Virus record (IMG/VR): IMGVR_UViG_3300037515_000068
Location: 1-47,023 of that record
DNA: 47,023 nucleotides
Reading direction: 5' to 3' (one strand)
Source: a virus
Taxonomy: Duplodnaviria > Caudoviricetes
Shown here: positions 29,331 through 46,170 of the stretch, piece by piece
Layout of the letters: every line of letters begins with the position of its first letter
How positions within the stretch are numbered: the stretch's first letter is position 1
Notes under the pieces: model-generated
What the model was told of the DNA's origin: nothing
Databases searched by the model: none
Seen by the model: only the letters and a program-made list of their open reading frames with translations
Translations under genes and position numbers: made by a program

Positions 29331-29335
29331 TCACG

Positions 29336-29539: not shown

Positions 29540-29647
29540 AATATAACCCCTTGAATCTGCTGGATGCGCCTATTTTAATAGTCTCGCACGATTGTGTCGA
29601 TTTATTTAAAAATTAACCATGCGGTGCATATCATTCGTTATGCCCCG

Positions 29648-29827
29648 TCACAGTGATTTAACATCCTGCACGACCGTTACCGCATAGCCAAGCGCCTTGA
29701 TCGCCTTGATCGCGGCATCCGTCAGTGTTGTGGTTCCGGCGATGGCGCAAAATAATTCAGCTTTGTCGCAAGCCGGGAAAATCCGTTGGTTCCCGAACTG
29801 GCTCACAATCCGCACTTTAATTTCCAT
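29648..29827 (-). CDS. Small phage protein in cassette 1
   Basis: MEIKVRIVSQFGNQRIFPACDKAELF..; AAGGTG RBS. Confidence 0.7.
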   Translation of the reverse strand: MEIKVRIVSQFGNQRIFPACDKAELFCAIAGTTTLTDAAIKAIKALGYAVTVVQDVKSL

Positions 29828-29869
29828 GATGTTCACCTTTTAAGTTATTAAGCTTGCCTACTGGTTCGC

Positions 29870-29899
29870 ATAATACAGGCGACGTATTGATCGTGTCAA
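29870..29899 (-). promoter_or_regulatory. Sigma70 promoter inside cassette 1
   Basis: Minus strand TTGACA-18-TATTAT. Confidence 0.6.
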
Positions 29900-29934
29900 G
29901 CGTTATTTTCAAAAGGTAAAAACCGCAGCGTAGG

Positions 29935-30002
29935 GCATAACCGTCGCTTCGAGAGGGACTGGACGAAAAGCGCCGTCCAGCCCCTCAAGCTAATCGTTGT
30001 GC
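29935..30002 (+). repeat. attC site
   Basis: GCATAAC-CGTCG-CTTCGAGAGGGACTGGACG..CGTCCAGCCCCTCAAG-CTAATC-GTTGTGC imperfect hairpin with extrahelical bases. Confidence 0.85.
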
Positions 30003-30268
30003 CACACGTCGATGGCGAAGACCTCAACCGGGTCTTTCCCAAAGTGCGGGTGTGTTATCACCTTCACCGTGTATCCCTTCCACGGCAGCACAAGCCGGCG
30101 CGTGGTGTCGTCTCGCCTCGGGTATCCGTATTTCAGTACAACCGAGTCGTATTTCTTCCCGATCAACTTCTTGCGCCAGTAGTCATTCACAAGCCGGTAT
30201 TCCTCGGGTTTGGTGCCCGCCTTGATCTGGTCGAAATACTCGCCCTTCAAATTCAAAACCAAGTCCAT
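29990..30268 (-). CDS. ASCH/PUA-like domain protein in cassette 2
   Basis: LNLKGEYFDQIKAGTKPEEYR..YW..YGYP; stop lies inside the attC. Confidence 0.8.
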   Translation of the reverse strand: MDLVLNLKGEYFDQIKAGTKPEEYRLVNDYWRKKLIGKKYDSVVLKYGYPRRDDTTRRLVLPWKGYTVKVITHPHFGKDPVEVFAIDVWHND

Positions 30269-30289
30269 TTCTCTCTCCGTTTGGCAGGG

Positions 30290-30353
30290 GCACAACACAT
30301 CATCCGAGCGGGACCGCGCAAAAGCGCGCGGCCCCTCAATTCAGCCGTTAGGC
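30290..30353 (+). repeat. attC site
   Basis: GCACAAC..ATCCGAGCGGGACCGCGC-AAAA-GCGCGCGGCCCCTCAAT..GTTAGGC. Confidence 0.85.
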
Positions 30354-30521
30354 ACTCTTTCGTTTGTACTGCGAAACGTGGGCATTTTTGCAATTGATGC
30401 AAAAATTAAGTGTGGAAGTACCGCATGACCACGCAACATAATCATTATGCCTGTCGCAATCCGTTTTCTTGCACTCCTTACCCGTTCTTGGTTTCGGGTA
30501 AAACTTGTCATAGTTTTCCAT
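30348..30521 (-). CDS. 57-aa Cys-rich protein in cassette 3
   Basis: MENYDKFYPKPRTGKECKKTDC...FCINCKNAH..KSA*; GGAG RBS; TAA lies within the attC core. Confidence 0.6.
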   Translation of the reverse strand: MENYDKFYPKPRTGKECKKTDCDRHNDYVAWSCGTSTLNFCINCKNAHVSQYKRKSA

Positions 30522-30537
30522 GTTTTCTCCAGTGCGG

Positions 30538-30601
30538 GCCTAACCCGTCAATCCAGCGGGACAGGCCAAAAGCGGCCTGCCCCTGATTTCATGCGTTAGA
30601 G
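30538..30601 (+). repeat. attC site
   Basis: GCCTAAC-CCGTC-AATCCAGCGGGACAGGCC..GGCCTGCCCCTGATT-TCATGC-GTTAGAG, aadA-type layout. Confidence 0.9.
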
Positions 30602-30607
30602 GTTCTT

Positions 30608-30829
30608 ATGTCAAAGTTCATATCTAATCTCCTTTACTCGTTGAAAAGCGAAAATGCCAAGCGCCGAGAAATGGAGAAAGCATTCGCCTCTGTTGACGCA
30701 TCGTCTCAAGACGATCCGAATCAATTTACACAAAACGATTGGCATAATCGGCCACTTGGCGTTATTGCTCTTGGCATTATTGCCTCTTTGTTGGCTTGGG
30801 CTGTTTTGCATCATTACGGCCTCGCCTAG
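30608..30829 (+). CDS. Small membrane protein in cassette 4 (canonical cassette orientation)
   Basis: ATG just after the core site, with GAGG RBS overlapping it; C-terminal TM helix. Confidence 0.6.
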   Translation: MSKFISNLLYSLKSENAKRREMEKAFASVDASSQDDPNQFTQNDWHNRPLGVIALGIIASLLAWAVLHHYGLA

Positions 30830-30893
30830 TGCAAAGGTATGCAACTACCGTAGCTCCGATAAACATTGAAAACCATAGCCCCATGTCACAGAC

Positions 30894-30953
30894 CTCTAAC
30901 CCGTCAATCAACCCGGACTCGCCTTCGGCGAGCCGGTTATTTCTGCGTTGGCC
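30894..30953 (+). repeat. attC site
   Basis: CTCTAAC-CCGTC-AATCAACCCGGACTCGCC-TTC-GGCGAGCCGGTTATT-TCTGC-GTTGGCC. Confidence 0.9.
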
Positions 30954-31423
30954 GTCACAGGTTCCCATGCGCTACGCTCCACCGGCTCAACCCACAGTCG
31001 CAGTTTCTGCGAGTGCTTGCCGCACCACAGGCATTCGCGGTGTTCGCCATTCGTCCGCCAGCGCGCGTCGTCGCCGACGAAGTGCATCTTGTGCGCCGGG
31101 TCAATGGCGCAGCGCCCTACGGCGGTGTAGCGTGGCCAAAAGTCCGCAATCTCTACCAGCGGACCGAGCCCGACCCAGCAGGCATGCTCTGCCTTCGTTC
31201 CATTGCACAGCACCTGCATCAGCCGCGCTCCGAAAAGGTCTCCGTTGTCCAGCATCCCAATCCACAGCGCGCCGGCCCTGTCAGAAAAAACCCGGCTCGT
31301 CCAAGCGTGGTGCTTCCGGCTGCGCATCGTCAGCCACTTGTGCAGGTTCGGGCTGTACTTCGCGCTCTTGCTTGGGTGTATCGCGGCCACGTCAAGGCCG
31401 TTCGCTTCTACTGCCAGTGTCAT
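30908..31423 (-). CDS. Hypothetical Cys/His/Trp-rich protein in cassette 5
   Basis: GGAG RBS; CAIDPAH..ECLWCG; reads through into the attC. Confidence 0.7.
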   Translation of the reverse strand: MTLAVEANGLDVAAIHPSKSAKYSPNLHKWLTMRSRKHHAWTSRVFSDRAGALWIGMLDNGDLFGARLMQVLCNGTKAEHACWVGLGPLVEIADFWPRYTAVGRCAIDPAHKMHFVGDDARWRTNGEHRECLWCGKHSQKLRLWVEPVERSAWEPVTANAEITGSPKASPG

Positions 31424-31445
31424 TTGTCGTCTCCAGTAAAGTGCC

Positions 31446-31516
31446 GGCCAACAACCGCATCGAGCGGGACCGTGCGCGATGAGGCCGCGCCCGGCCCCTC
31501 ATGCGGAGCGTTATTC
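31446..31516 (+). repeat. attC site
   Basis: GGCCAAC-AACC-GCATCGAGCGGGACCG..CGGCCCCTCATGC-GGAGC-GTTATTC. Confidence 0.85.
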
Positions 31517-31566
31517 GCTTTGTTCTTCTGCACAAATCTTCCTGCTAACAAGTCGTTTGTGCGTGA

Positions 31567-31776
31567 CTAACTACGCTCTCCTACAATCTTCCTCGCCGCA
31601 GACATCACATCCCGCTTGCTGATCGCCTGACGTAACGCCTCCAACTTGTTGCGCGCTATCTCTTGCGCATGAAGACATTCAAGCGTGGATTTGTCCGCTG
31701 CATCGTCGAGTTCGTCCTGGTACTCGGCAAGCTGGCACATCAGGCGAGCTTTGTCTGTGATGTTTATGTCCGGCAT
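31567..31776 (-). CDS. Hypothetical protein
   Basis: ORF with GGAG RBS in the leftward operon. Confidence 0.5.
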   Translation of the reverse strand: MPDINITDKARLMCQLAEYQDELDDAADKSTLECLHAQEIARNKLEALRQAISKRDVMSAARKIVGERS

Positions 31777-31873
31777 TTCATTCTCCGCTGTTGTTGGTGA
31801 TGGGTGAACTATGCCAGCGTTTTACCGGCCATGCCATCCCCCGAAGGTGTGGGTATCATGCAACACTTTAGTG

Positions 31874-32038
31874 TTACTTCGCAAGCGAATCAGCGAACCA
31901 GTCGAGCATTATTCGGAGCTGCACATCCATAAGTTCGACCGCACGATGTGCGCCGTCGTAGTCGCCTTTCATGGCGGCATCCTCAGCCACTTTCAGCAGG
32001 CGTTTGGCTTCCAGCATGGCTTCTATGTAGTCTGTCAT
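31874..32038 (-). CDS. Small hypothetical protein (MTDYIEAMLE...)
   Basis: TAATG-coupled to the ssb stop. Confidence 0.5.
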   Translation of the reverse strand: MTDYIEAMLEAKRLLKVAEDAAMKGDYDGAHRAVELMDVQLRIMLDWFADSLAK

Positions 32039-32517
32039 TACATCGCCCTCCAGCACACCCCAGCACCACGATGCCCGTTCCGCATGAAGGGGATGTCGGA
32101 GTCAAAGTCGTCAAACGATCCGCTGCCTGACTTCGGCATATCGGCGCGAGGCGCTGGAGCTTGCCGAACTGGTTTGTTTTCGCTGGCCTGTTGTTCGCCT
32201 TGCGCCTTGCCGCCCAGCAGTGCCAGTTCTGTCACCCGAACGTCCAGCGATACGCCTTTCCCTCCGTCTTTTTGGTCGTAGCTGCGCAAGGTCACTTCGC
32301 CGCTGATGCCGACAAGCTGCCCCTTCCCTAGGTACGGCAGCACGGATTCGCCGCGCTTGCCGAACATGGCACAGTTTGCCCACGTCGTTTTTTCTTTGTC
32401 GCCGTAGCCGGATTTGACGGCAACTGAGAACGACACGACGCTATCGCCGCCAGTGGTGAATCGTTGCTCGGCATCTTTACCGAGGTTGCCGGTGAATGTC
32501 CAGTTGTTGAGTCCCAT
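32038..32517 (-). CDS. ssb: Single-stranded DNA-binding protein
   Basis: GNLGKDAEQR, FSVAV, KGQLVGISG, DDFDSDIPF acidic motif. Confidence 0.93.
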   Translation of the reverse strand: MGLNNWTFTGNLGKDAEQRFTTGGDSVVSFSVAVKSGYGDKEKTTWANCAMFGKRGESVLPYLGKGQLVGISGEVTLRSYDQKDGGKGVSLDVRVTELALLGGKAQGEQQASENKPVRQAPAPRADMPKSGSGSFDDFDSDIPFMRNGHRGAGVCWRAM

Positions 32518-32526
32518 TATTTTTCC

Positions 32527-33171
32527 TTATGATGCGAAGGTGATGCGGTTATAAATCTGTCGAGTCCTGCGAACGTCGTCCTTGCAGTAGTCGATTACCT
32601 TTTGCGGATCAACCGGCCATGTTTCGGCGACCATCGATCCGTCAAAGTCGCCCTTGCCCTCAATGCCGAATGCTTTGCAAAGCCTGTCCATGCTTCCGCG
32701 CTTGTGCGGGTCACTACTCCACATCAGCATCGTATCGGCAATGCAATCATCCCAAGGCTTCGCGCTCATGGCCTTGCGGATAGACTCGGGCGGCTTGATT
32801 CTGAGGATGATGCTGCGGTGCTTAAGGAACGGAAAATCAAACCCGGCGATGTTGTGTCCGCAATACTTGCCGACGAACGGCAGATAGTCGTAGAAGCGCT
32901 GGATTGCATCGCCTTCGCTATCAGTCGGCAGAGTGGCGAAAGTCTCTCCATCGTCTTCCTGCCACGCTATGCAGGCGATGCGCCCATACATTCCATCGAA
33001 CGAAGTCTTCGCAACCAGTTCGGCGAGCGCGGATTCAGCGTTTTCTTCCATCCATGCCGCGCAAGTCTCTGGCTTCTTGTGCGTAGCTGGCGGCTTGATC
33101 GTGGCGCGCAACTGCTCGATAATTTCAGGGTCTTGCGTGGGCAGAGTTTCCGAATCAAAAGTCAAAATCAT
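32527..33171 (-). CDS. PolB-like 3'-5' exonuclease (DEDD)
   Basis: FDSET, GHNIAGFDFPFL, YCKDDV. Confidence 0.88.
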   Translation of the reverse strand: MILTFDSETLPTQDPEIIEQLRATIKPPATHKKPETCAAWMEENAESALAELVAKTSFDGMYGRIACIAWQEDDGETFATLPTDSEGDAIQRFYDYLPFVGKYCGHNIAGFDFPFLKHRSIILRIKPPESIRKAMSAKPWDDCIADTMLMWSSDPHKRGSMDRLCKAFGIEGKGDFDGSMVAETWPVDPQKVIDYCKDDVRRTRQIYNRITFAS

Positions 33172-34055
33172 GATGCCGCTCCTTCGTCGATAATCTGTTG
33201 CAGGGTTTCTTTGCGCGCATCTTTTGCGGCGGTGAACTTGGATAGCGCCGCAGTGTCGCCGATAGCCTTTGCGGCCTTGTGCGCGGAGATGTATGCAGAT
33301 TTCAGCGCGTCCTCTGTTTGTGCGTCGGTGATCGTCAGCAACAAATCGGCTACAGACGATTCGGAAAGCGCAGGCGTTACACCAGAGTCGAGCCAGTTCA
33401 GCAGCGTCTCGCCGGTCTTTTGCTCGATTTTGAAAAACTGCCCATCGAACAAGCTGGTTCTGTCCTTGCTGGCGCTGGCGATGTGGTTCATATCCACGTC
33501 CAGCATCACAGTAAACTCGTACTCCATGCCTTCACGTTGAACAGGGGCCATGCCGACCTTCTTCGGTGTTTGCTTGCCCTTCTCGTTTGTCTCAAGCACG
33601 TATTCCTGCTTGCTTCGCATCGTCGCGATAATGTGGCAAGGAGATTGCAGCATGGATTCAACCAGCGCGTTATGCTCTGGCGTGATCGTGCGCCATGCAG
33701 CAAAGCTGTTCGTTCCACGGTCGGCGAGTTTGCCTTGCTTGTCCAGCAAGCCGCCATCACCGGCCCATGCATGGCTCAGGCTGTCGATGATGATCGTGTC
33801 GTAGCCAGCAGATTCAAACGCCTTGATTGCCTCGCGGTATTTGCTGACAGAATACGGCGCTTCGATACCGATAATGTCGTACTCACCCAAGTGCGCGTAC
33901 AAGTCACCGGAGCCGTGCTCAGTGTCAATCAGGCCGACCTTACCGCCCATACCGAACGCCATCAAAAGGGCGCTGTATGTTTTTCCGCCGCCGCTTGGTG
34001 CGGAGATTCCGAGCCTGAGCTTTGCTTTTTTTCGTTCTGCGCGCCTGATTTCCAT
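33168..34055 (-). CDS. Sak4-like AAA ATPase recombinase
   Basis: APSGGGKTYSAL, IDTEHGS, IIDSLSHAW, QREGMEYEF; adjacent to ssb and the exonuclease. Confidence 0.85.
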   Translation of the reverse strand: MEIRRAERKKAKLRLGISAPSGGGKTYSALLMAFGMGGKVGLIDTEHGSGDLYAHLGEYDIIGIEAPYSVSKYREAIKAFESAGYDTIIIDSLSHAWAGDGGLLDKQGKLADRGTNSFAAWRTITPEHNALVESMLQSPCHIIATMRSKQEYVLETNEKGKQTPKKVGMAPVQREGMEYEFTVMLDVDMNHIASASKDRTSLFDGQFFKIEQKTGETLLNWLDSGVTPALSESSVADLLLTITDAQTEDALKSAYISAHKAAKAIGDTAALSKFTAAKDARKETLQQIIDEGAAS

Positions 34056-34365
34056 GTTGTTTCCCCTTGTGCGTTTAGCCTGTTTAGTGGATGGTGGTAG
34101 TGATAGCAATCGTGCATATCAATCCCGGATTCGTTCTCTTGCTCCTGTTGCTCCTGTTGCGCCTGCCATTCATCTGCCATGCGTCCCATGCTGGCCTCCT
34201 TGTTTACTCAATTTCTCCGCAGCCCGATCGCGCCTGAGTTGTGCCATGCTCCTGATGTGGTGCGATGTCAGCGCGGCGATGTGGCAACGTGCGCGCAGGC
34301 CGTCTTTGATTATCTCGACTTGCGCGGTATCTGCCATGCGGTCGATGTTTGTCAGCCAGTTCATT

Positions 34366-34626
34366 TCAAACCTTCGGTGCGTCTGGTAGTGGCATCCAGT
34401 GGGTCGGATCGGTTGCCCAGCAGTTCGGCATGTCATCGGCTTCGACCGATGTTTCGTACCATCCTTCAAGTCCATCGCAGTCTTCCGGCTCTTCCCATGT
34501 TTCGATGATTGCATCCTGAGAAAACCACTGCCCCCGCATCGTTCGCCAGTTGCCGTGCGAGTTGCGGTAGCCAAGCAAAATCGTGCAGCCTGTTTTCGGC
34601 GCTGTTTCAATCGTCTGCCATTCCAT
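34366..34626 (-). CDS. DUF551-family protein
   Basis: MEWQTIETAPK...PTHWMPLPDAP. Confidence 0.85.
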   Translation of the reverse strand: MEWQTIETAPKTGCTILLGYRNSHGNWRTMRGQWFSQDAIIETWEEPEDCDGLEGWYETSVEADDMPNCWATDPTHWMPLPDAPKV

Positions 34627-34884
34627 TTCAATCTCCTTTATTTTGGGCGCTTTCGAGTAGCGCAAGTATTTTCTTCGCACCTGAGCGCGCGTAAATCTGC
34701 AATCGCAGCGCATGCTTCGCGCTCTCGTTTCACTATGCCGTCCAATCTCTCATCAGGATCTTCGGACAATATAGCGCGCACCCGTGCGATGAATTCTTCC
34801 TTCGTTTCCGCGTCATGCGTCACAATGTCGCGAAGTGCGCAGATAGTCGCGGCGAGAGAGTCGGCGCGGTGCTGGTGCTGGGCA

Positions 34885-35088
34885 TCAGCCGGCATCGTCT
34901 TCATCATCTGCGGCGCATGTAAATTCGTTTGCAATCTCGCGCAACTGGGTAGATGTGAGCTTCCATGACTTAACCTCATCCCAGCGCCCGCAGCATTTGT
35001 TCGGCGTAAGCCTTGTTCCGCTGTGCTCGCTGTTAAGTGAAATCGCAAACATCCCATGCGGGCATTTATCGAGCGATAGCGTTTTCAT
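34885..35088 (-). CDS. Hypothetical protein
   Basis: MKTLSLDKCPHG..KCCGRW; coupled to the upstream gene. Confidence 0.5.
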   Translation of the reverse strand: MKTLSLDKCPHGMFAISLNSEHSGTRLTPNKCCGRWDEVKSWKLTSTQLREIANEFTCAADDEDDAG

Positions 35089-35291
35089 GGCCTCCACCAC
35101 AACACCAGCACCACAATCGCCGCCAACGTGTAAACGATCATGATGAAATGTCCCGAAAAGTTGGTGATGTCCTCGACCTCTTCGTATTCGTTAGCAAGAA
35201 ATACCGGCTCATCGCTCCCGAATGCCTCCTTCGTGGTGCGCGGGAATCGGTGGACAGTGTTTCCGTATTCGGCGTAGAGGTTGTCGGTCAT
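35085..35291 (-). CDS. Small membrane protein
   Basis: HRFPRTTKEAFG motif and C-terminal TM. Confidence 0.6.
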   Translation of the reverse strand: MTDNLYAEYGNTVHRFPRTTKEAFGSDEPVFLANEYEEVEDITNFSGHFIMIVYTLAAIVVLVLWWRP

Positions 35292-35689
35292 TTTGCGGAC
35301 TCGGCTTTCTCGATTGCAATGCGAAGTTTTTCCAATGCGGCGCGGCTACCATCGTTATCGCTCAGGCGCCCAAGCGTTGGAAGAGAGCCGACAACAAATG
35401 ATCTAACTTCAATAGCAGCATCCATCAGCTCGTCGCGCTGCTTCCTGATGATGTCGTATGCGTGGATAAACTTCCCGCCGCGAGCGGCTGATTCGAGTTC
35501 GCTGGTCGGTATTCCGGCGCAGGCATCCAAGCAAGCCTTAACTCGGCGTGCGCCTTCTTCTCGACTAATAGATAGTCTGCGTCCTTCCCACATCATAACG
35601 ACGATTTCATCGGCATTAACGCCATCATGATTCAGCCGATAAACCAGCGAATCGACTATTTTCAGCGGCTGTTTTTCTGCGTCGTTCAT
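35288..35689 (-). CDS. Hypothetical phage protein
   Basis: ARRVKACLDACAGIPTSELE..QRDEL..AIEKAE. Confidence 0.65.
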   Translation of the reverse strand: MNDAEKQPLKIVDSLVYRLNHDGVNADEIVVMMWEGRRLSISREEGARRVKACLDACAGIPTSELESAARGGKFIHAYDIIRKQRDELMDAAIEVRSFVVGSLPTLGRLSDNDGSRAALEKLRIAIEKAESAK

Positions 35690-36236: not shown

Positions 36237-36370
36237 GATTACCCTTAGTTAATTAGGCTGCTGTTAAAGCCGCAGCTCGCATCCTGAGTCCCCGGTATCC
36301 GCGCCCGTAGTCGTTTTCCCTGTTTAACTCAGCCTCTGTTTAATGCCCAGCGGTTCGAGGCGTTTCTTTA

Positions 36371-36496
36371 TTAGCCGTTGCCGTAGCCGTCGCCGTAGCC
36401 GTCGCCGTAGCCGTCGCCGTAGCCGTAGCCGTAGCCGTCGCCGTAGCCGTAGCCGTAGCCGTCGCCGTCGCCGTCAAGCGTTAGAGTAGTTTCCAT
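36371..36496 (-). CDS. 41-aa Gly-Asp/Tyr repeat peptide
   Basis: METTLTLDGDGDGYGYGYGDG...NG*; overlaps the end of the upstream gene. Confidence 0.65.
   Translation of the reverse strand: METTLTLDGDGDGYGYGYGDGYGYGYGDGYGDGYGDGYGNG
36374..36475. repeat. Hexamer tandem repeat GCCGT(A/C/T) x17
   Basis: Direct reading of the sequence. Confidence 0.95.
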
Positions 36497-36801
36497 TTCG
36501 CTTGCTCCACGTCGATGATGGAGATTACTGCACGATTTGGGATGCGTAGTGACCCAACCTTATCGAGCTTTGTTCCTGACAATGGGCCTCCGACTAATTC
36601 ACCGATCCCCTTTGTAGTTCCCCACACGCGGATATTGCTGGAATTTTTCAGCTTAACAAAATCATCCGTTTCTTCGACATTGCCGATATAAACGAATCCG
36701 CGATCAGCTATGACAATCTTTATATCGCCATCGCACTTTTCCACCGAATCAGCGCGGATATATTTCACATCGTCAATCGTTATGGTTTCAGGCTTGCTCA
36801 T
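36481..36801 (-). CDS. DUF6948-like (Sm-like) phage protein
   Basis: MSKPETITIDDVKYIRAD..IVIADRGFVYIG..IRVWGTTKGIGEL. Confidence 0.7.
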   Translation of the reverse strand: MSKPETITIDDVKYIRADSVEKCDGDIKIVIADRGFVYIGNVEETDDFVKLKNSSNIRVWGTTKGIGELVGGPLSGTKLDKVGSLRIPNRAVISIIDVEQAKWKLL

Positions 36802-37001
36802 GTCTATCTCCAAATGGTTAATAAGTGCCGTCCAAGGCTGGAAAGGAATCTGTCGCACATCCTTCGGTCGGGCGGTTTGGTTCGGGTGGCCGCCATCCTT
36901 TATTTTGTTATCGCAGTGCCTTTTCTCCTGCGCTCCTTCAACCTTCTTAGGGCTATCGCTCCAGTCTCCGAGCTCATAACAAAACATTCCGTATTGCTCA
37001 A

Positions 37002-37191
37002 TCGTCAGTAGTCAGGTGGCCGGTGCTAATCTCCGGCGATGGCATTTAACTACTGGTGGCGCTTATGCCTTCCGGCTATTCGCTTATTAGCCATAGCCCT
37101 CCCATACTGGGGCAGACCCCGCCCCGCCCGAAGAGTATCCATCTTGAAGCCTCAGCACATTAGCTATGCGCATTCACCTGATTACTGACGA
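37002..37191 (-). ncRNA. Candidate structured RNA with loop-loop pairing
   Basis: 17-bp closing stem (37002-37018 / 37175-37191); two hairpins whose loops GCTAAT and ATTAGC are complementary. Confidence 0.45.
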
Positions 37192-37610
37192 CTGCTTGTT
37201 AGGTGCTGGCGAAAGACAAAGATTTATGCACCACACAATCGCTACTTACGCACAATCGCCAGCAATACTGCAACAACAACAACTAGCTAAATTACTCTTG
37301 CTGCCTTGTAATGGATAGTAGATGGCGTGTTGCTTAACTCAATGTATGCGCCGATCTCGAATCCGGCTTCCCGCCCATGCGACATACAACCGTGCTGAGT
37401 AGCACTCACAACACGCCAACTGCTATCCACTACATTTGCTCGCTACCGTTGCGCCCTTACCGTAGTTACGACGCTGCACTATGACCGCGATTCAGACTAA
37501 CGCTACTTGCCGGTACTTTAGGGATCTAAGAGCGCTCTGCGATTCCATACTCAATCCGTCGTTCGCTGCTGCTGGCCTGCCGGTTCGGCACTACACCGCC
37601 GATGTGAAGC

Positions 37611-37689
37611 ATCATGCCATAACGTATGGCAAAGCACAAGAGGAAATTGCAACTTGTTGAAACCTGCAATATATGGCATCATACCAGCC
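37611..37689. promoter_or_regulatory. Divergent promoter pair and palindromic operator
   Basis: Minus TTGTGC-17-CATGAT and plus TTGTTG-17-CATCAT, both with extended TG; palindrome TGCCATA-ACG-TATGGCA at 37615-37631. Confidence 0.5.
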
Positions 37690-37881
37690 ATGAATAAACG
37701 CAAACTAATCGAATATCTGGGCGGCACTTGCGAGAAGGCCGCGCATAGATTGGGCTACGCATCAGATAATGCGCGCAACAACATCCAGCGCCTGAGCGAC
37801 CCGCTGACCGATCGCCAGGTGCAGACGATCATCATGCGCATGAAGGCCAAGCGGATCAAGATTCCCGAGTCGTTGCTATGA
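37690..37881 (+). CDS. Cro-like regulator (possibly leaderless)
   Basis: MNKRKLIEYLGGTCEKAAHRLGY..LSDPLTDRQ; first gene of the rightward arm. Confidence 0.65.
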   Translation: MNKRKLIEYLGGTCEKAAHRLGYASDNARNNIQRLSDPLTDRQVQTIIMRMKAKRIKIPESLL

Positions 37882-38168
37882 CACAGCAAATAGAAAGACT
37901 CAGGCGGTACAATCGATGGAGGCGCGGCGATAAGCGCCTGAAACAGCCAGACCCAAAGGCGCTTGGCGAACTTATAGACGGCGTTGCGGACAGGATGGAA
38001 GTGCTAGAACGAGAGCGCGCGGAGTTTTTTGAGCGGTGGCACAATGAACGGCGTAAGCGCGAAGCATTGTCCGTAGATGTTGCCCGATGCTTACGGATTA
38101 TGCTATCTGAGCCGCTTAGGGCAGAAAGAATTTTACGTGAAGCATTGACCCTGAGCAATCAGGGCTAA
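37878..38168 (+). CDS. Hypothetical protein
   Basis: LRRYNRWRRG..PKALGELID motif common in phages. Confidence 0.6.
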   Translation: MTQQIERLRRYNRWRRGDKRLKQPDPKALGELIDGVADRMEVLERERAEFFERWHNERRKREALSVDVARCLRIMLSEPLRAERILREALTLSNQG

Positions 38169-38345
38169 CAAGATAGGCGACTAGAATAGAGGCTGGTGGA
38201 GATCATATGCCCATCATGGAGACCATCTAGCCGCCTTCCTTGTTGGTGAATCGCAAGCGGTCGGCGTAGTCAGTTCGAGCTGTCGAACATATCTGGCGTA
38301 TAGCGGCCAGACACCAACAGCCTACACTCCTCCCCCTGGAGCTTT

Positions 38346-38375
38346 GACCTGTCCTAGTGGCAGGTCTTTTTTTTT
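38346..38375 (+). terminator. Rho-independent terminator
   Basis: GACCTGTC-CTAGT-GGCAGGTC followed by T9. Confidence 0.8.
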
Positions 38376-38454
38376 CGTAAATTTTGCTACTTGGTATTGC
38401 GGTAGTTGGCGGGCGGGGTTACTATGTTGGTGCGCTGTACATCCGGCGACATTC

Positions 38455-38549: not shown

Positions 38550-38568
38550 GCATGGGAGAAAATAAAAA

Positions 38569-38694
38569 ATGAATGCACAGTTCCAAGCTGCCCACCGATA
38601 CGCGAAGCTGATCCCGAAGATGAAGGAGCGCAATCGTCGAACAGGCGTTTTAATGCTGCTGGCTAAGATCAAGGCAGCAATCAAGCATGGCTAG
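38569..38694 (+). CDS. Small basic protein (41 aa)
   Basis: GGGAG RBS; overlaps the initiator start. Confidence 0.45.
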   Translation: MNAQFQAAHRYAKLIPKMKERNRRTGVLMLLAKIKAAIKHG

Positions 38695-39418
38695 AATTCG
38701 CTCTATCAAGCCTGACTTCTGGACTGACGAGAAGATCGTAGAGCTTTCCGCTTTCTCGCGCCTGCTGTTCATTGGCCTGTGGAACTTTGCTGACGACGAT
38801 GGGCGCATGGTGTACTCGCCCAAGAAAATCAAGATGCAGATATTCCCCGCCGATACTCTGGATATTTCGGAGTTATTCGGGGAAATTCGGCGGGAATCGC
38901 TGGTTGATATTTATGTCGTTGATGGTGTTGAATATTTGCAGGTAAAGAATTTTGCACAGCACCAGAAGATCGACAAGCGGACAGCATCGAAACTACCAGA
39001 AAATTCCGACTCACCTCCGAATTCCGCCGAATCCCACCGAATCCCAACTACGGAATGGAAGGGAAGGGAAGAGGAAAAGGAAGGGAATGGAATAAAAGCT
39101 ATAGCAACCGGCAAGCCGGTTTGCCCACATCAGGAAATCATCGCCCTATACCACGAGATTCTGCCGTCTTGCCCTGCAATCCGCGACTGGACTACAGCAA
39201 GGGCGGCAGCATTGAAGGCTCGATGGAACGAGGATGCCGAACGGCAATCGCTGGAATACTGGCGACGGCTGTTCGAGTACATCGCCGCGATTCCGTTCCT
39301 GACTGGCAAGGTTTCCAGCTCTGGACGCAAGCCGTTCGTGCTGTCGCTGGACTGGCTGGTGAAGGCCGATAACTTCGCCAAGGTGCGCGAAGGACGCTAC
39401 GAGGATTCCGCAGCATGA
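38687..39418 (+). CDS. Replication initiator protein
   Basis: MARIRSIKPDFWTDEK..LLFIGLWNFADDDGR; C-terminal LDWLVKADNFAKVREGRY. Confidence 0.85.
   Translation: MARIRSIKPDFWTDEKIVELSAFSRLLFIGLWNFADDDGRMVYSPKKIKMQIFPADTLDISELFGEIRRESLVDIYVVDGVEYLQVKNFAQHQKIDKRTASKLPENSDSPPNSAESHRIPTTEWKGREEEKEGNGIKAIATGKPVCPHQEIIALYHEILPSCPAIRDWTTARAAALKARWNEDAERQSLEYWRRLFEYIAAIPFLTGKVSSSGRKPFVLSLDWLVKADNFAKVREGRYEDSAA
38861..39046. other. Putative replication origin (iterons within the initiator gene)
   Basis: 10-bp-period repeats ending TTCGG (38861-38890) and inverted CCGAAT(T/C)C.. x3 (39017-39046) flanking an AT-richer stretch. Confidence 0.55.
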
Positions 39419-40751
39419 GCGACCTATCCGAAAACTTCACTGTCCCGCACAGCACTGACGCAGAGCAATCCGTACTCGGTGGACTGCTGATCGACAACAA
39501 CGCGATTGAGCGCATGGGCGACTTGGAAGAGTCGGCGTTCTACACCGAATCGCACCGCCTGATTTACCGCGCCATCCGCAAGCAAGCTGCTTCCGGCAAG
39601 TCGTGGGATGTCATCACCGTGGCGGAAATGCTCGAATCGGTGAAGCGCTTGGATGCTGTCGGTGGGTTGCCGTACATCGGTAGTCTTGCGCAAAACGTGC
39701 CGTCGGCCGCAAACATTCGCCGCTATGCCGAGATCGTCCGCGAGCATGCCATGCGCCGAGAGATTATGGCCGCCGCTGCCGAACTATCCGAACTGGTCGC
39801 CGCCAATGGAGATGTCGCGGTGGCGATGGACAAAGCGCAATCCCGCCTGATGGCGATTACCGAAGGCGTGCAGACGGACGAGCCGCGCCACATTGCCGAG
39901 ATCGTGACAAGCGGCTTGAAGGCAGCACAAAGGGAATTCCTACCGGCCTGATTGAACTCGATGCAATCCTGAACGGAGGCTGGCATCGCGGGCAGGTGAT
40001 CGTGATGGCGGCAAGGCCTAGCATGGGTAAAACCGCGCTATCGCTGCACAACGCCACGTATGCGGCGCAGCATGGCTACGGCGTGCTGTATCTGAGCATG
40101 GAAATGAAGGATAGCGAACTGGCTGATCGGGCGATTGCCTCGTTGGGTCGTGTCAACCTTGGCAGCATCCTCACAGGTGACATGAAAAGCGAACAATGGG
40201 ATGGAATCACACATGCAGTCGGCAAGGTGCAGGACATCGCGCTGCATGTGCTCGACAAGTCCGGACTGAGCTTCTACCAAGTGGCTACATTCTCGCGCCG
40301 CCACAAGCGCAAGCACGGGCTGGATGTGCTGGTGGTTGACTACTTGCAACTGATGTCCGGAGCGGATGACGAGAAGCGCCACGCTCAGATTGAGGAAATC
40401 ACCCGCAACCTGAAATCTCTGGCGAAGGAGTTGGATATTGCGGTGCTGCTGTTGAGCCAGTTGTCACGTAAGACCGAAGAAAGCCGCCGCCCGAAGTTGT
40501 CGCACCTTCGCGACTCCGGTTCCATCGAACAGGATGCGGATGTTGTGCTGTTCATCCACCGCGAGGAAGTTGACAACCCGGAAACGCAATGGAAGAACTA
40601 CGCGGACATTCATATCGCGAAGAACCGCCAGGGTGCGTTAGGGCGGGTAGGGGCGACGTACATCGGGCATCAGGTGCGCTTCGATAACTTCACCGGCACG
40701 CCGCCGAACTGGGACGAAAAGCCCGCACAAAAACCGAGAGGATACCCGTAA
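39415..40751 (+). pseudogene. dnaB: DnaB-like replicative helicase, frameshifted near 39905
   Basis: N-domain PHSTDAEQSVLGGLL in one frame; KRLEGSTKGIPTGLIELDAILNGGWHRGQVIVMAARPSMGKT, VVDYLQL, LRDSGSIEQDAD in the -1 frame. Confidence 0.85.
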
Positions 40752-40909
40752 TGACCATCCGCCAATCCTACGCCGAGCGAGACGCCGCCATCTTCGCATG
40801 GTCTGAAACTGGCATGCGCCAGAAGGCCATCGCGCAGATGTTCGACCTGTCCGAGTATCGCATCAAGGCCATCATCGCCAAGCAACGCAAGATTACCAAA
40901 ACCAACTAG
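40751..40909 (+). CDS. Small Mor-like HTH protein (52 aa)
   Basis: ERDAAIF..GMRQKAIAQMFDLSEYRIKAII. Confidence 0.6.
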   Translation: MTIRQSYAERDAAIFAWSETGMRQKAIAQMFDLSEYRIKAIIAKQRKITKTN

Positions 40910-40918
40910 GAGGCAAAA

Positions 40919-41911
40919 ATGGAACGCAAATTAGCATCTGTCAAACGCATTACCGAAATCAGAGCAATCGAAGGTGCTGACGCAATTGAGTGCGCAATTG
41001 TCGGCGGCGGATGGCCGGTAGTGGTGAAGAAGGACGAATTCAATGAAGGCGATTTGGCGCTGTACTTGGAGATCGACTCTTGGGTTCCGTATGAGCTTGC
41101 ACCATTCTTGTGCAGAGGAAAAGAGCCTCGCGAGTTTAACGGCGTGAAGGGCGAGCGTCTGCGCACGATCAAGCTGCGCGGCCAGATCAGCCAAGGTCTG
41201 GTGTTGCCGCTTGACCCGAGTGAGGACATGGCGTTCGATGGGCAGGACATGACTGAGCGTTACGGCATCCAGAAATGGGAGAAGCCAATCCCGGCGCAAC
41301 TGCAAGGCCAGATGAAAGGAAACTTCCCGTCTTGGATTCGCAAGACAGATCAAGAGCGCGTCCAGAACCTTGACGGGGTAATTTGCTGGGATGATGAATA
41401 CGAAATAACAATCAAGCTGGACGGCTCCAGCATGACGATATGGGGCCATGCCGGCGAGGTCGGGGTATGCTCTCGCAACGTGGACTTAAAGATGGATCAG
41501 GAAGGAAATTCGTTCGTCAACATGGCGAAGAAGATTCTTGATCGAATTGAGTTGCCGGAAGAAATCGCCATTCAAGGCGAGCTGATTGGGCCATCAATTC
41601 AGGGCAATCGCGAAGGTCTAGCGGAACATGAATTTTACGTGTTCGATATATTCGATATTGTGGCGCAAGCGTATTGGTCTCCGCTGAGTGTGCGTGCATT
41701 TTGCAAAACCAACGGATTGAATCACGTTCCAGTTATTGATGAGCACTGCAAACTTGTTGACAATGGCGTTTGCTCGATTGAGTCCGCACTTGCATTCGCC
41801 GAAGGGAAATCGCTGAATAACCCGGTGCGAGAGGGTTTGGTATTTAAGCGCACAGATGGGGGATTTTCGTTTAAGGCCATCAGCAATACTTTTTTGCTTG
41901 GCGAAAAGTGA
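40919..41911 (+). CDS. RNA ligase (DRB0094/Rnl2-like family)
   Basis: RKLASV..IEGADAIE..KLRGQISQGL..KTDQERVQN..KLDGSS..QGELIG..EGLVFK..SFKAISN. Confidence 0.9.
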   Translation: MERKLASVKRITEIRAIEGADAIECAIVGGGWPVVVKKDEFNEGDLALYLEIDSWVPYELAPFLCRGKEPREFNGVKGERLRTIKLRGQISQGLVLPLDPSEDMAFDGQDMTERYGIQKWEKPIPAQLQGQMKGNFPSWIRKTDQERVQNLDGVICWDDEYEITIKLDGSSMTIWGHAGEVGVCSRNVDLKMDQEGNSFVNMAKKILDRIELPEEIAIQGELIGPSIQGNREGLAEHEFYVFDIFDIVAQAYWSPLSVRAFCKTNGLNHVPVIDEHCKLVDNGVCSIESALAFAEGKSLNNPVREGLVFKRTDGGFSFKAISNTFLLGEK

Positions 41912-41936
41912 TTATCGCAGCGCAACGGAGGAAAGC

Positions 41937-42113
41937 ATGATTTCTGCAATTATCAACAAATTTCGCACGACCTTACGCACTAATCGGCTGCGCAAAGCAA
42001 TCCGAGTTGTTGAGTCCGAAGGTCTCCATGTTTGCAACATGAAAGAGCTTTGGGATTCTGTTTATCTGGTAGACAAAAAAGGAAGCTGGCACAAGGTTGG
42101 GAGGAAAGCATGA
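41937..42113 (+). CDS. Small hypothetical protein
   Basis: GGAGG RBS (MISAIINK...). Confidence 0.5.
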   Translation: MISAIINKFRTTLRTNRLRKAIRVVESEGLHVCNMKELWDSVYLVDKKGSWHKVGRKA

Positions 42114-42496
42114 GCCGGAAACGAGGCAAACGGCATAGCACGCTTGCGGTCGTTCCACTGGGTGCAAAGCGCAACAGATACGAAATCGACGCACGCGCTG
42201 CCTTGCTTGCACTGGAGAACGATTGCGCCAATCAGCAGCATCTGGTTGACCTGTACGTGCTAGCCGAGCTGTGCGACGAGCTGACCGACGAACCGCATAT
42301 CAGGGCGCATTGTGATGCTGTGCGCCGGCTGTGCGACGAAATCCACAATGCCGAGTACGTCTGCACGGGATTGCGCTACGCAGCGATGCAGTCGAGCGCG
42401 AACCTGCTGCTTGACTGGTTCCACCTACAGCCGAATGCGTCCATCGCACGGATCGCGCTGCGCATGGTGGCGAAAATTGAAGGGGTGACGGAATGA
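42110..42496 (+). CDS. Hypothetical protein
   Basis: GGAGG RBS (MSRKRGKR...). Confidence 0.55.
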   Translation: MSRKRGKRHSTLAVVPLGAKRNRYEIDARAALLALENDCANQQHLVDLYVLAELCDELTDEPHIRAHCDAVRRLCDEIHNAEYVCTGLRYAAMQSSANLLLDWFHLQPNASIARIALRMVAKIEGVTE

Positions 42497-42714
42497 TGGA
42501 AACTACACCTAGAGTTATTGGGCTATCGCGCGACAATAGAACGCAGCGATGGCTTGTAACGTGCCCGAGGTGCGGCCATGTATTTGAGCCGCAAACGACC
42601 AGGCTATCATGGCAAGACATGGACTGCCCTAAAACAAAGTGCGGGGCGCGAATGATGGCTGACTACAATGCAGAGCCGCCAACAGTGAAATTGGTGCGTA
42701 AGGAGGCCGCATGA
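42493..42714 (+). CDS. Zn-ribbon protein
   Basis: CPRCG..CPKTKCG. Confidence 0.55.
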   Translation: MMETTPRVIGLSRDNRTQRWLVTCPRCGHVFEPQTTRLSWQDMDCPKTKCGARMMADYNAEPPTVKLVRKEAA

Positions 42715-42934
42715 GACTTGAAACCTACCCCACCTGTAAAGCCAGCCGCAAGACGCGCAAGCCTCTGCGCACGGCTCTTGAATTGGCGGCTGAACACAAT
42801 CGAGCATGGCGCAACTGCGCGGCTATCTTGCCGGGAGCGATGCACCGAAGCCGGAGATGGTCAACCGGCGCGGCGGCGCGTATTACGAACCTATCGCATT
42901 CCGCAAGTGGATTGCAAAAAAGTTGCCGAATTGA
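42711..42934 (+). pseudogene. Xis/AlpA-like wHTH protein with an apparent 1-nt frameshift near 42800
   Basis: PLRTALELAAEHN in frame 0 continues as SMAQLRGYLAGSDAPKP..YYEPIAFRKW in the -1 frame. Confidence 0.45.
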
Positions 42935-43025
42935 GCTATAACATGTAGCAATAATTTGTTGCTTGATGTAGAGTGTCGGAACGCTAACAGGGCGCAACGC
43001 TAGATTGAAAAGAAAGGATTTTTTA

Positions 43026-43772
43026 ATGCGAGTTGATGACGAAGTATTAGCTGTGTTGAGCCGTGCTGAAACTAGCGGGTTTGAATTGAAGCTGACAGGG
43101 CAGCTTGACCGCAAGCTATACGAGCGCACGAACAAAGTGCTGGAAGCTGCGGGCGGGAAGTGGAACCGAAAAGCTAAGGCGCACGTTTTTGAATCTGAGG
43201 CTTTTGACAGAATTGACCAGATCATTTTGTCCGGTGAGGTTGAGATACCAAAGGACGAATTTAACTATTTTCCTTCCCCGCCTGCTGTTGTAGCGCGGCT
43301 TATGGAGCTTGCTGGAATTTCGCCTGGGATGCAGGTTTTAGAGCCAAGCGCGGGGCGCGGGGCTATTGCGGTAGCTTGCGCCGAGCAAGGCGCCGATGTT
43401 GACTGCGTGGAACTGATGGAAGTCAACTACAACGCGCTATGCGCGGATGACAGGCTTAAGCGCGTGAAACATGGCTGCTTCCTTGAGCATGGCGTGATTG
43501 AGGCTTACGACCGCATCGTGATGAACCCACCTTTTGCAAAACAGGCCGACATCAAGCACGTAACCCACGCGCTGAAATTCTTGAAGCCGGGTGGTAAGCT
43601 AGTTTCGGTAATGGCGTCAAGCGTTGGATTCCGCGAAAACAGGCTTACCAACGAATTCCGCGATTTGATTGCAGAGCGAGGCGGACGAATTGAAGCACTG
43701 CCAGAGGGCGCATTCAAAGAATCTGGCACGATGGTTCGGACGGTGATCGTTGAGATACCGGCTGCAATTTGA
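43026..43772 (+). CDS. SAM-dependent N6-adenine-type methyltransferase
   Basis: VLEPSAGRGAI, MNPPF, LKPGGKLV, FKESGT. Confidence 0.88.
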   Translation: MRVDDEVLAVLSRAETSGFELKLTGQLDRKLYERTNKVLEAAGGKWNRKAKAHVFESEAFDRIDQIILSGEVEIPKDEFNYFPSPPAVVARLMELAGISPGMQVLEPSAGRGAIAVACAEQGADVDCVELMEVNYNALCADDRLKRVKHGCFLEHGVIEAYDRIVMNPPFAKQADIKHVTHALKFLKPGGKLVSVMASSVGFRENRLTNEFRDLIAERGGRIEALPEGAFKESGTMVRTVIVEIPAAI

Positions 43773-43787
43773 TTTGGAGGTATTGCG

Positions 43788-43886
43788 GTGAGCCAAACCA
43801 TCATCATCACCCAGCAAAGCCAGCAGAACGCACTGACTCGCATTTCCAACCTGCCGACAGATGGCAGCGTTGAGATTGTTGTATGA
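43788..43886 (+). pseudogene. Truncated NinB-like N-terminal fragment
   Basis: GGAGG RBS; MSQTIIITQQSQQNALTRISNLPTDGSVEIVV*. Confidence 0.4.
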
Positions 43887-44320
43887 GCGCGTGGACAATT
43901 AACAGCGAATCATCGCTACAATCCGCTATTGGTGACGTGCGAGAGTTGTACCGTGTACACAAGTACGTAAAGCTATCCGCCAAGACAGGTAAGGCGCGTA
44001 GCTTGGATCAAAATGCAATAAGCCATAGTTGGTACGAGCAACTTGCCCGCGAACTTCGGGAGGATGATGCGGTAGGCTGGAAATCCTACTGCAAGCTGCA
44101 TCACGGCGTTCCGATACTTCGAGCAGAGGATGTAGAATTTCGCGAGTTTTACGATACATCTATGCTGCGCACGATGAGCTATGAGCAAAAGCTTGCGGCG
44201 ATGAAGTTTGTACCTGTGACTAGCATAATGACGAAGCCGCAGTTGAGTAAATATCTTGAATCGATGCAAATCGATTTCGATAAGCGTGGTGTATATTTAA
44301 AATTTCCAGAATTGGAGTAA
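43883..44320 (+). CDS. ninB: NinB-like protein
   Basis: RSLDQNAISHSWY..WKSYCK..TSIMTKPQLSKYLE. Confidence 0.7.
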   Translation: MSAWTINSESSLQSAIGDVRELYRVHKYVKLSAKTGKARSLDQNAISHSWYEQLARELREDDAVGWKSYCKLHHGVPILRAEDVEFREFYDTSMLRTMSYEQKLAAMKFVPVTSIMTKPQLSKYLESMQIDFDKRGVYLKFPELE

Positions 44321-44399
44321 AAAATGATTCGTAAAACTCGCCAGAGGAAAAAAAAGACCTTTATATTTAGTCAATAATCTTGCTGAAATTCACAGAGGC

Positions 44400-44819
44400 A
44401 TGAAGAGATCCGAAGAAACAAGGAAGAAAATTTCTGATTCCATGAAAGGGAACCAGAAATGGCTAGGAAAAAAACATTCAGAAGAAACAAAGATTCTTAT
44501 ATCAAAAGCCAAAGCCGGCAAAGATAATTTGAAAGCAAGGAAGCCGATAAAAGCTAATAAAGTTGGCTGTAGCGATTATATATATTTCAGTGGATTGCTA
44601 GAGGCATCTAAAGCATTGGGTATCGGAGCATCAGGGATTTCTATGTGTTGCACAGGCAAGAAATCATCCGCTAGAGGGTATGAGTTTAGATTTACGAGCG
44701 CGCAGGAATTAGGCGTTATTTTTTACGTGCACAACGTAGAGTTCAGCGGGACTCCGGCAGCATCATCGCCGGAGGCTCCGCTGGAACGCCGGGTTGGGCC
44801 TGGCGCACAGGAGGATTGA
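44400..44819 (+). CDS. NUMOD3/NUMOD1-type DNA-binding protein lacking a nuclease domain
   Basis: KRSEETRKKISDS, GKKHSEETK, FSGLLEASKALG..ISMCCTGK..ARGYEF; C-terminus encoded by the attC. Confidence 0.7.
   Translation: MKRSEETRKKISDSMKGNQKWLGKKHSEETKILISKAKAGKDNLKARKPIKANKVGCSDYIYFSGLLEASKALGIGASGISMCCTGKKSSARGYEFRFTSAQELGVIFYVHNVEFSGTPAASSPEAPLERRVGPGAQED
44729..44799 (-). repeat. attC site
   Basis: Minus strand GCCCAAC-CCGGC-GTTCCAGCGG..CCGCTGAAC-TCTAC-GTTGTGC. Confidence 0.88.
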
Positions 44820-44822
44820 GAT

Positions 44823-45020
44823 ATGCAAACAGCGAAAGAGCGAGAAGAAGCGTTTCGCCGCGACCTGGCGGAACTGCTGGCAAAGCACAAGGCTGAACTG
44901 AACATCACCGACGACGGCAGGAGCTACGGAATGCACAGCGGCGTTGCCGAGGTGACGATGATGGGCGAGTGGGACGCGGAAGGGAATCCGACCGCCGACT
45001 ACACGGAGTTTCGGATATGA
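44823..45020 (+). CDS. Hypothetical protein in a cassette
   Basis: GGAGG RBS; fills the cassette. Confidence 0.65.
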   Translation: MQTAKEREEAFRRDLAELLAKHKAELNITDDGRSYGMHSGVAEVTMMGEWDAEGNPTADYTEFRI

Positions 45021-45021
45021 G

Positions 45022-45084
45022 GCCCAACGCCTGAATTAACGCGCCGCCGCTTTTGGCGGTCGAGCCTTGAACGCCGTGTTATGC
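45022..45084 (-). repeat. attC site
   Basis: Minus strand GCATAAC-ACGGC-GTTCAAGGC..ACCGCCAAAAGCGGCGG..GTTAATT-CAGGC-GTTGGGC. Confidence 0.8.
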
Positions 45085-45105
45085 GGCTATTTACAGGAGG
45101 ATGAG

Positions 45106-45381
45106 ATGGTTGATCTTTCAAGGCAGGAAATGACCGGGACGCTGTACGTGTTTGGCGTTCCGGTTTTGAGTGGGCTGTACGCATCGAATGCGGAGGACGC
45201 GATGACATGGCGAAATCGCGTGCCTCCGCTGCTGCGCTGGGCGTGCCGGTTTAGCTGGTTCATGACCTGGACGACGAAAGAGGAATACCGGGACGCGACC
45301 GGCGCGGTGAGGCGGCGAGACAGCCTGCCGCATAACGAAAAATTAACCAGCGGTGCGCACACTGCACCCAAAACGGAGTAG
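45106..45381 (+). CDS. Hypothetical protein in a cassette, reading into the attC
   Basis: AGGAGG RBS (MVDLSRQEM...). Confidence 0.6.
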   Translation: MVDLSRQEMTGTLYVFGVPVLSGLYASNAEDAMTWRNRVPPLLRWACRFSWFMTWTTKEEYRDATGAVRRRDSLPHNEKLTSGAHTAPKTE

Positions 45382-45452
45382 AGAATATGGAACACACTGA
45401 GGACGTAAACAAGGCCGCTGGCGCACCGTCTGAGTTGAATGCCGGGTTAGGC
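45330..45452 (-). repeat. Long attC site (123 bp)
   Basis: Plus-strand GCATAAC..CGGTGCGC..long loop..GCGCACCG..GTTAGGC. Confidence 0.75.
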
Positions 45453-45476
45453 ATTCTAACCACGGAGAGGTGAACG

Positions 45477-45710
45477 ATGATAAAAAACAAAATAATTGAG
45501 CAGCAGGTTATTTTTGAATCTGCGACAGGTAAAAAGGCGCGCAACGTCTATCTCGGCAGGGAAGACATGAAAGACCTTTTGAAATGGGCGCAACTGAACG
45601 GCTACATCATGGACGCTGGCTCGGCGAACATCGAAGGTTTGGACAGGCCTGTGGTAAGAGGATTGAAATGTTTTGAGGTGAACGCGGACAGGCATATTGA
45701 ATGTGCCTAG
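45477..45710 (+). CDS. Hypothetical protein in a cassette
   Basis: GAGGTG RBS; stop inside the attC heptamer. Confidence 0.65.
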   Translation: MIKNKIIEQQVIFESATGKKARNVYLGREDMKDLLKWAQLNGYIMDAGSANIEGLDRPVVRGLKCFEVNADRHIECA

Positions 45711-45772
45711 CGCCTAGCTAACCGGCGCAGGCGGCTTCATCGCCTGCGTCCGGGTTGAGCGACGTGTTATGC
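45705..45772 (-). repeat. attC site with mutated crossover triplet (GTT to GCT)
   Basis: Minus strand GCATAAC-ACGTC-GCTCAACCCGGACGCAGGCG..CGCCTGCGCCGGTTAGC-TAGGC-GCTAGGC. Confidence 0.8.
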
Positions 45773-45813
45773 CGCCGTGCCGCCAGAACCGTTTTTTAAC
45801 CAAGGAGCAAACC

Positions 45814-46095
45814 ATGAACCTGAAATACCGCAAGAAGCCCGTAGTGATCGAAGCGTTTTGTTTGGACGGCGGCGCAATGCCGGAGTGGTTCTTGGACGCA
45901 CGAAGCGCGGGAACCGTGAGGACGTATGCCGAGGGCACTGGCAACCCGTTCGATGACCCGCTGACGCACGCCGAGATTGACACGCTTGAAGGAACGCACA
46001 GAGCGAACCGGGGAGACTGGATCATTCGCGGGATCAAGGGGGAACTGTACCCATGCAAGCCGGACATCTTCGCAGCGACGTATGAAGCGGCATAA
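45814..46095 (+). CDS. Conserved phage protein (KYRKKPVVIEA family) in a cassette
   Basis: IDTLEG..GDWIIRGIKGELYPCKPDIFAATYE; TAA inside GCATAAC. Confidence 0.85.
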   Translation: MNLKYRKKPVVIEAFCLDGGAMPEWFLDARSAGTVRTYAEGTGNPFDDPLTHAEIDTLEGTHRANRGDWIIRGIKGELYPCKPDIFAATYEAA

Positions 46096-46170
46096 CGAGT
46101 AGTTAACTCGGCTGCGCATCGCGCAGTCCGGTGGAGCGAAGCGGAACGAAAGTTAAACGTAGCGCCCTAA
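46090..46170 (-). repeat. Terminal attC with degenerate inverse core
   Basis: Minus strand GTTTAAC..CTGCGC-GAT-GCGCAG..GTTAAC-TACTC-GTTATGC; the expected AAC of the inverse core is absent. Confidence 0.6.

Follow-up and report, generated by a model that had tools for sequence, protein, structure and literature searches.

Why should the genes of integron cassettes carried by a phage face the wrong way? The question is raised by a 47,023-nt stretch of DNA, the window, which is the whole of virus record IMGVR_UViG_3300037515_000068 and derives from a lambdoid/P22-like phage with two integrase-less arrays of attC sites. In eight of its nine cassettes the gene lies on the attC bottom strand, and only one has the canonical layout of a top-strand gene followed by its own attC; set against the bacterial rate of 7 in 201 called cassettes, this is not chance. 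Every reversed gene in the window runs with the local operon. The reversed-gene layout is real and general among phages and represents a variant of integron cassette arrays. The two arrays probably belong, as members that lack an integrase, to a type of phage integron whose genes are reversed, an arrangement kept by geometry and expression.

Sites and genes of the two arrays

Nine full attC sites were found, five in array 1 and four in array 2. No intI lies nearby, and the arrays are thus CALINs (clusters of at least two attC sites within a few kb, without a nearby integrase gene). All nine have R''/R' cores of the form AAC...GTT and L boxes arranged as an imperfect hairpin, with AGC in place of AAC in B4.

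Array 1:
A1, 29935-30002, top strand +; weak in the covariance model (E 0.12)
A2, 30290-30353, top strand +; own site of cassette c1
A3, 30538-30601, top strand +; own site of c2
A4, 30894-30953, top strand +; 96% identity over 54 nt with a site of chromosomal array G199
A5, 31446-31516, top strand +; promoter-proximal end of the array, without an upstream partner
Array 2:
B1, 44729-44799, top strand -
B2, 45022-45084, top strand -
B3, 45330-45452, top strand -; 123 nt with a long terminal loop, weak in the covariance model (E 0.87)
B4, 45705-45772, top strand -; cleavage triplet AGC, which probably makes it a poor recombination substrate

Extra-helical bases and spacer asymmetry mark one recombinogenic strand at these sites, as judged by the geometry score and the matrix. 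The polarity assigned in the original prediction (array 1 top +, array 2 top -) was returned for 9/9 sites by three callers, namely a covariance model, a position matrix and a geometry score for extra-helical bases. These were trained solely on bacterial integrons, with sites oriented by the position of intI and genes not used. The covariance model was built from 46 bacterial sites, each of at most 102 nt, and the matrix from 69 sites, after nine of 78 candidates had been discarded as poor. The geometry score agreed with the intI-defined orientation in 75 of the 78 bacterial candidates, and the matrix scanner with intI-defined polarity at 241/243 sites from 40 chromosomal loci outside the training set. 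Window sites scored 31-52 with the matrix, and three shuffles of the window never exceeded 20.4. Cassette ends were complementary over 7-10 nt at eight of nine junction pairs, the ninth having a single mismatch, in B4. At E 0.001, model R1 gave no hits in three whole genomes and is thus weak at genome scale, and an Rfam scan of the window gave only a weak SorX match and no family covering these sites. A plain minimum free energy scan and strand calls from the longest open reading frame (ORF) were too noisy, and the matrix and codon models were used instead.

The genes were likewise predicted to lie on the bottom strand in eight of nine cassettes and to match local phage transcription. This held when gene strands were called with a codon model: the seven cassettes between full sites gave six bottom and one top, and the two terminal cassettes have bottom-strand ORFs (29648-29836, -; 45769-46095, +). 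Gene strands throughout rest on the codon model; swapping the viral and bacterial models between sets left the direction unchanged.

Array 1:
c0, 29648..29836, strand -; 62 aa, with a sigma-70-like promoter at 29899-29870 (11/12 matches; total promoter hits were not above shuffles)
c1, 29990..30268, strand -; phrog_625 (ASCH-like by the label of a phage record), runs into A1, homolog in locus L119
c2, 30348..30521, strand -; 57 aa, Cys-rich, homolog in locus L425
c3, 30608..30829, strand +; the exception, a 73-aa top-strand ORF, with an alternative bottom-strand ORF of 35 codons at 30777-30884
c4, 30908..31423, strand -; 171 aa, reads through A4
Array 2:
Backbone gene, 44400..44819, strand +; NUMOD3/homing-endonuclease-like ORF at the proximal end of the array, reads through B1
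d1, 44823..45020, strand +; 65 aa, bottom strand
d2, 45106..45381, strand +; runs into B3
d3, 45477..45710, strand +; 77 aa
d4, 45769..46095, strand +; phrog_419, stop codon within the R box of the terminal site B5

The exception, c3, has only two homologs, without context, and none in viral contigs. A second phrog_625 gene lies at 46358-46633, not in any cassette; this copy shows that cassette cargo is ordinary phage stock.

A reversed cassette pool and the strand that recombines

To compare gene orientation with attC polarity, as had been proposed for the original prediction, viral loci were gathered through two phage proteins, two attC patterns, one cassette protein and IntI. The result was far from random: after dereplication at 95%, called viral cassettes were 238 bottom and 25 top, and bacterial ones 7 bottom and 194 top. 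By locus, 69 of 72 viral arrays were mostly bottom; the three mostly-top loci were L194 and L267, whose IntIs group with bacterial ones, and L106. Loci selected through proteins gave 18 bottom and 0 top. One attC pattern searched in metagenomes returned 60 loci with cassettes in a bimodal split (30 bottom-only, 20 top-only, 7 mixed and 3 uncalled). Among the matches listed for the c4 protein family (120 homologs), the tail was read through a bottom strand in 18 and a top strand in none, the two motifs of this test detecting 207 and 152 of 351 control sites. The cultured phage PH101 is also reversed, its sites being top + and its genes - at 3/3 cassettes by annotation and 2/3 by the codon model, as is MW202573 (3/3 cassettes); TJE1 is canonical (2/2).

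Reversed phage cassettes and canonical bacterial cassettes had no close homologs in common. In the betaproteobacterial order searched, IntI was found in 165 of 401 genomes and array 1 was matched by 43 of the 401, nearly all through attC alone and mostly not through the genes. One chromosomal array (G199) holds a reversed cassette whose site is 96% identical to A4, which is consistent with traffic through a host integrase. The geometry also predicts that reversed cassettes stored in a host array would be silent from Pc, as first proposed.

If crossover is at R' on the bottom strand, a reversed gene should move together with its upstream site. Homologous cassettes were consistent with this expectation: at a threshold of 0.85 or above, seven of 30 reversed pairs shared only the upstream flank and none only the downstream one, and of six canonical pairs five shared the downstream flank and none the upstream. 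The c1 gene and its homolog in L119 share A2 exactly, c2 and its homolog in L425 share A3, and homology starts and ends at AAC. Bottom-strand recombination by IntI, on which the original prediction relied, is thus supported indirectly by the upstream attC that homologous reversed cassettes share. At sequence level, the exchange appears to follow normal IntI chemistry on the bottom strand, the gene alone being reversed. In other pairs the same gene and leader are joined to different attC bodies, with the break near the sense-strand GTT; such an attC swap could occur through rare top-strand events (PMC5027507) or homologous exchange.

Were phage sites recombined on their other strand, the cassettes would be functionally canonical and the inversion an effect of naming. 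Indeed, R'' and R' come close to mirroring each other, and the TAA of the downstream R box supplies the stop codon of 64 of 204 reversed genes, as it does for canonical genes. However, it is the upstream site that moves with the gene, 39/39 clusters show canonical polarity with respect to phage intI, and the two PH101 sites assayed by Qi et al. (PMC9892861) recombined better as bottom strands, the strand on which the PH101 genes lie. This explanation is largely refuted, and we consider it extremely improbable.

A different doubt is whether IntI still acts on these sites at all. They could be relics of host attC sites, employed today as homology linkers by phage proteins of recombination (Sak4-like, NinB, exonuclease) or acting as RNA leaders. 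The window phage encodes all three proteins and no IntI; A2 and its 5' leader are identical to those in L119 when the gene is only 72% identical, and many homologous genes have different attC bodies. Yet the breaks lie at the AAC triplet, 8/9 junctions retain complementary ends, attI-like ends are conserved, and in 186 of 245 phage sites the bottom strand still folds more stably, so that we regard relic status as improbable.

Phage integrases, array ends and replication

Viral IntI loci numbered 101, in 59 clusters, and 12/12 viral IntIs tested passed the TIGR02249 integron-integrase cutoff. The nearest upstream attC was canonical relative to phage intI in all 39 clusters, the gene before intI was co-directional with it in 50 of 52 callable clusters, and their cassettes, two bacterial-type loci excluded, were 45 bottom and 1 top. 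An attI lies about 30-140 nt ahead of the intI start in 22 loci. These integrons occupy Mu-like, terminase-adjacent, post-tail and prophage-end contexts. In a quick-search tree without bootstrap, 49 such phage integrases fell into several groups mixed with bacterial ones, and the starred branches require at least four changes. One locus (L564/L565; G214:C13:1-6000) lies at the end of a prophage within a bacterial genome; it has a reversed IntI integron and a phage-type attI, and a tyrosine integrase stands there ahead of host genes. Reverse transcriptase genes near reversed arrays (L285:5315-6661; L563:3706-4509) possibly belong to attC-targeting group II introns.

The promoter-distal ends of the window arrays carry the following sites:
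A0, 29626..29643, strand -; simple site of attI-like form, made up of an R box, a 5-nt spacer and an L box, with the G|TT crossover at 29637|29638 on the + strand
B5, 46090..46158, strand not assigned; atypical site at the terminus of array 2, with a hairpin after its AAC-5nt-GTT core

With a matrix derived from the attI sites of hosts (31 sites), A0 reached 4.4, against a 99th background percentile of -0.4, and the distal ends of 21 of 33 integrase-less arrays, compared with 2 of 280 attC starts, exceeded this percentile. A related phage contig from an independent run (X4) matches 29041-29639, replaces array 1 with 844 other letters and rejoins at 31577. Its break coincides with the GTT of A0, which at the level of sequence places an exchange of cassette content at an attI-like crossover. 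The contigs of run X1, possibly the run from which the window derives, revealed no joint at an attC, though contigs cannot exclude one. A 9/12 promoter match at 29605-29634 (+) beside A0 is placed like Pc, overall hits being at chance level; likewise, a promoter-like match at 29600-29572 (-) is placed like PintI, again with overall hits at chance level. B5, for which no downstream partner was found, may be a degenerate attC or attI-like.

These observations suggest how the inversion could arise. An integron platform (intI-attI, or attI alone) would sit within a phage operon, intI being read in the same direction as the other genes there. As attI polarity is fixed relative to intI, normally inserted cassettes would have their top strand antisense to the phage transcript, and with intI sense in the operon and attI polarity inherited, only reversed genes would be transcribed. 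Canonical cassettes would be silent there, and selection would keep bottom-strand genes with attC as a 5' leader. New cassettes would enter at the promoter-distal attI, and a phage without intI, such as that in the window, would depend on an integrase supplied in trans by the host or by a co-infecting phage. We infer the expression-driven selection, the descent from intI-bearing platforms and the integrase in trans; the intI-in-operon layout itself is seen in the sequences of other phages.

Several points weigh against this proposal. No tblastn match for IntI was found in the window (best E 0.21). Viral loci were mostly picked by attC patterns or IntI and form a non-random sample, the codon model left 18/75 and 35/185 bacterial cassettes uncalled, and TJE1 demonstrates that canonical cassettes can sit in a phage operon. 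The 0.85 threshold was set after the data had been seen (background 95th percentile 0.72); a crude comparison of upstream and downstream flanks without a threshold splits the 30 reversed pairs 13 to 12, because 23 of the 30 share neither site. At the array ends, 24 of 62 arrays have no exact distal partner in view, and B5 was not scored as attC and fell below the attI test threshold.

The original prediction looked to replication, placing both bottom strands on the lagging-strand template of forks leaving a putative origin. Under this explanation only lagging-template bottom strands would fold and shuffle efficiently, and genes would have to be reversed to stay co-directional. The relevant features are:
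O-like replication initiator, 38687..39418, strand +
Putative origin, 38875-38904 and 39006-39042; short inverted repeats in the O-like gene

The lagging-template effect is established (PMC8946536): in E. coli, excision increases in this orientation, which the majority of sedentary integrons avoid (PMC5371416). The strand logic of the prediction proved correct for a bidirectional origin in the O-like gene, and 10/10 loci that have several sites and an O-like or DnaB gene within view are on the lagging template under this model (one needs a circular wrap and two are duplicates). Replication could also explain why reversed layouts outnumber TJE1-like ones and arise repeatedly. However, all lagging loci are also co-transcribed, so that replication is fully confounded with transcription, and single sites are on the leading side in 2/4. 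GC skew gave no independent support, turning at 37816 and 27386, which are transcription switch points and not the putative origin or its antipode. The origin is putative and fork direction inferred, and first insertion at genomic sites was without leading/lagging bias (10.1101/2022.09.11.507474). Six Mu-like transposable phages have the reversed layout as well, placed behind the tail genes and upstream of genes for primase or the head. Mu-like replication mainly runs with the early operon, and these phages therefore do not decouple fork from transcription either; a scan of 92 of 170 flanking ORFs yielded no decoupling case with a mapped origin. The attI-like distal ends and the phage integrons whose intI lies in the operon, neither of which figured in the original prediction, account for the inversion without recourse to replication, which may add to the bias alongside expression but is not needed and is unlikely to set polarity by itself.

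The + strand of the window carries P22-like head, ejection and lysis genes, the leftward early arm SSB, exonuclease and Sak4-like genes, and the rightward arm genes for an O-like initiator, DnaB, RNA ligase, methylase and NinB; none of the 70 window ORFs scanned belonged to an integrase family. The DnaB-like helicase at 39415-40751 is in two ORFs (39415-39951 and 39996-40751), and run X1 contigs break at 39906, which may reflect an assembly fault. A tandem 6/12-nt repeat at 36348-36491 (-), directly after ORF 36481-36987, encodes Gly-Tyr/Asp-Gly runs and has very high contig depth. No integrase or CI-like repressor was recognised in 37000-38400, and the divergent promoter region is flanked by long hairpins (37307-37434 and 38163-38248). 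Related phages L090 and L143 have two mirror-image arrays on divergent arms, like the window.

Comparison with known integron systems

The data suggest that phages keep their own mirror-image cassette pool. Integron work assumes that the gene precedes attC on the top strand, and the phage pool follows the opposite rule, which changes array annotation, namely which attC belongs to which gene. With such a pool, a site-specific mechanism is at hand for the mosaicism of accessory regions in tailed phages, and bacterial arrays are predicted to contain cryptic phage genes. Cassette genesis becomes testable because the same phage genes occur with different attC sites or none, as does the question of whether host integrases remodel infecting phages. 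It is possible, though we hold this tentatively, that phages run a separate and widespread integron economy, in which intI-attI was captured from hosts several times and wired into operons in mirror geometry, ordinary phage genes became reversed cassettes, host chromosomal integrons, having attC and attI types in common with the phages, act as integrase donors and silent stores, and attC swapping on phage genes is an observable route of cassette genesis.

The reversed layout was not found described in the literature searched, which scarcely covered subscription papers. Phage CALINs were found: Qi et al. (2023, PMC9892861) reported phage attC clusters without an integrase, as here, whose sites recombine with attI1 as bottom strands. 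The portion of their text available calls the cassettes of TJE1 and PH101 typical without discussing how gene strand relates to attC polarity, whereas PH101 and MW202573 are reversed in our analysis; the figures or GenBank supplement may show orientations. Nor does that portion describe a distal-end attI or intI within phage operons, both of which were found here.

With canonical sedentary and mobile integrons the phage arrays share attC anatomy, the G|TT crossover, the attI consensus and attC sequences of betaproteobacterial chromosomal arrays. They differ in having bottom-strand genes, attC as a 5' leader and, probably, growth at the promoter-distal end and expression from the phage operon instead of Pc. 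Read-through into the neighbour's site is also more frequent (70 of 204 reversed phage genes versus 10 of 188 canonical ones). Where top-strand recombination inverts cassettes (Nivina et al. 2016, PMC5027507), the gene likewise faces away from Pc, but there the whole cassette flips and the gene-attC relation stays canonical, whereas here attC keeps its normal polarity and the reversal affects the gene alone, throughout whole arrays. In inverted-integrase integrons (PMC13323075), intI and cassette genes are co-directional, as in phages, but intI and attC are on the same strand, in contrast to the regular attC polarity relative to intI in the phage integrons. The closest parallel in gene position, a bottom-strand gene in a normal attC frame, is given by opposite-strand cassettes of the Vibrio superintegron (toxin-antitoxin; 10.1101/2023.11.21.568050); these are rare exceptions with their own promoters, whereas in phages a whole promoterless pool is reversed.

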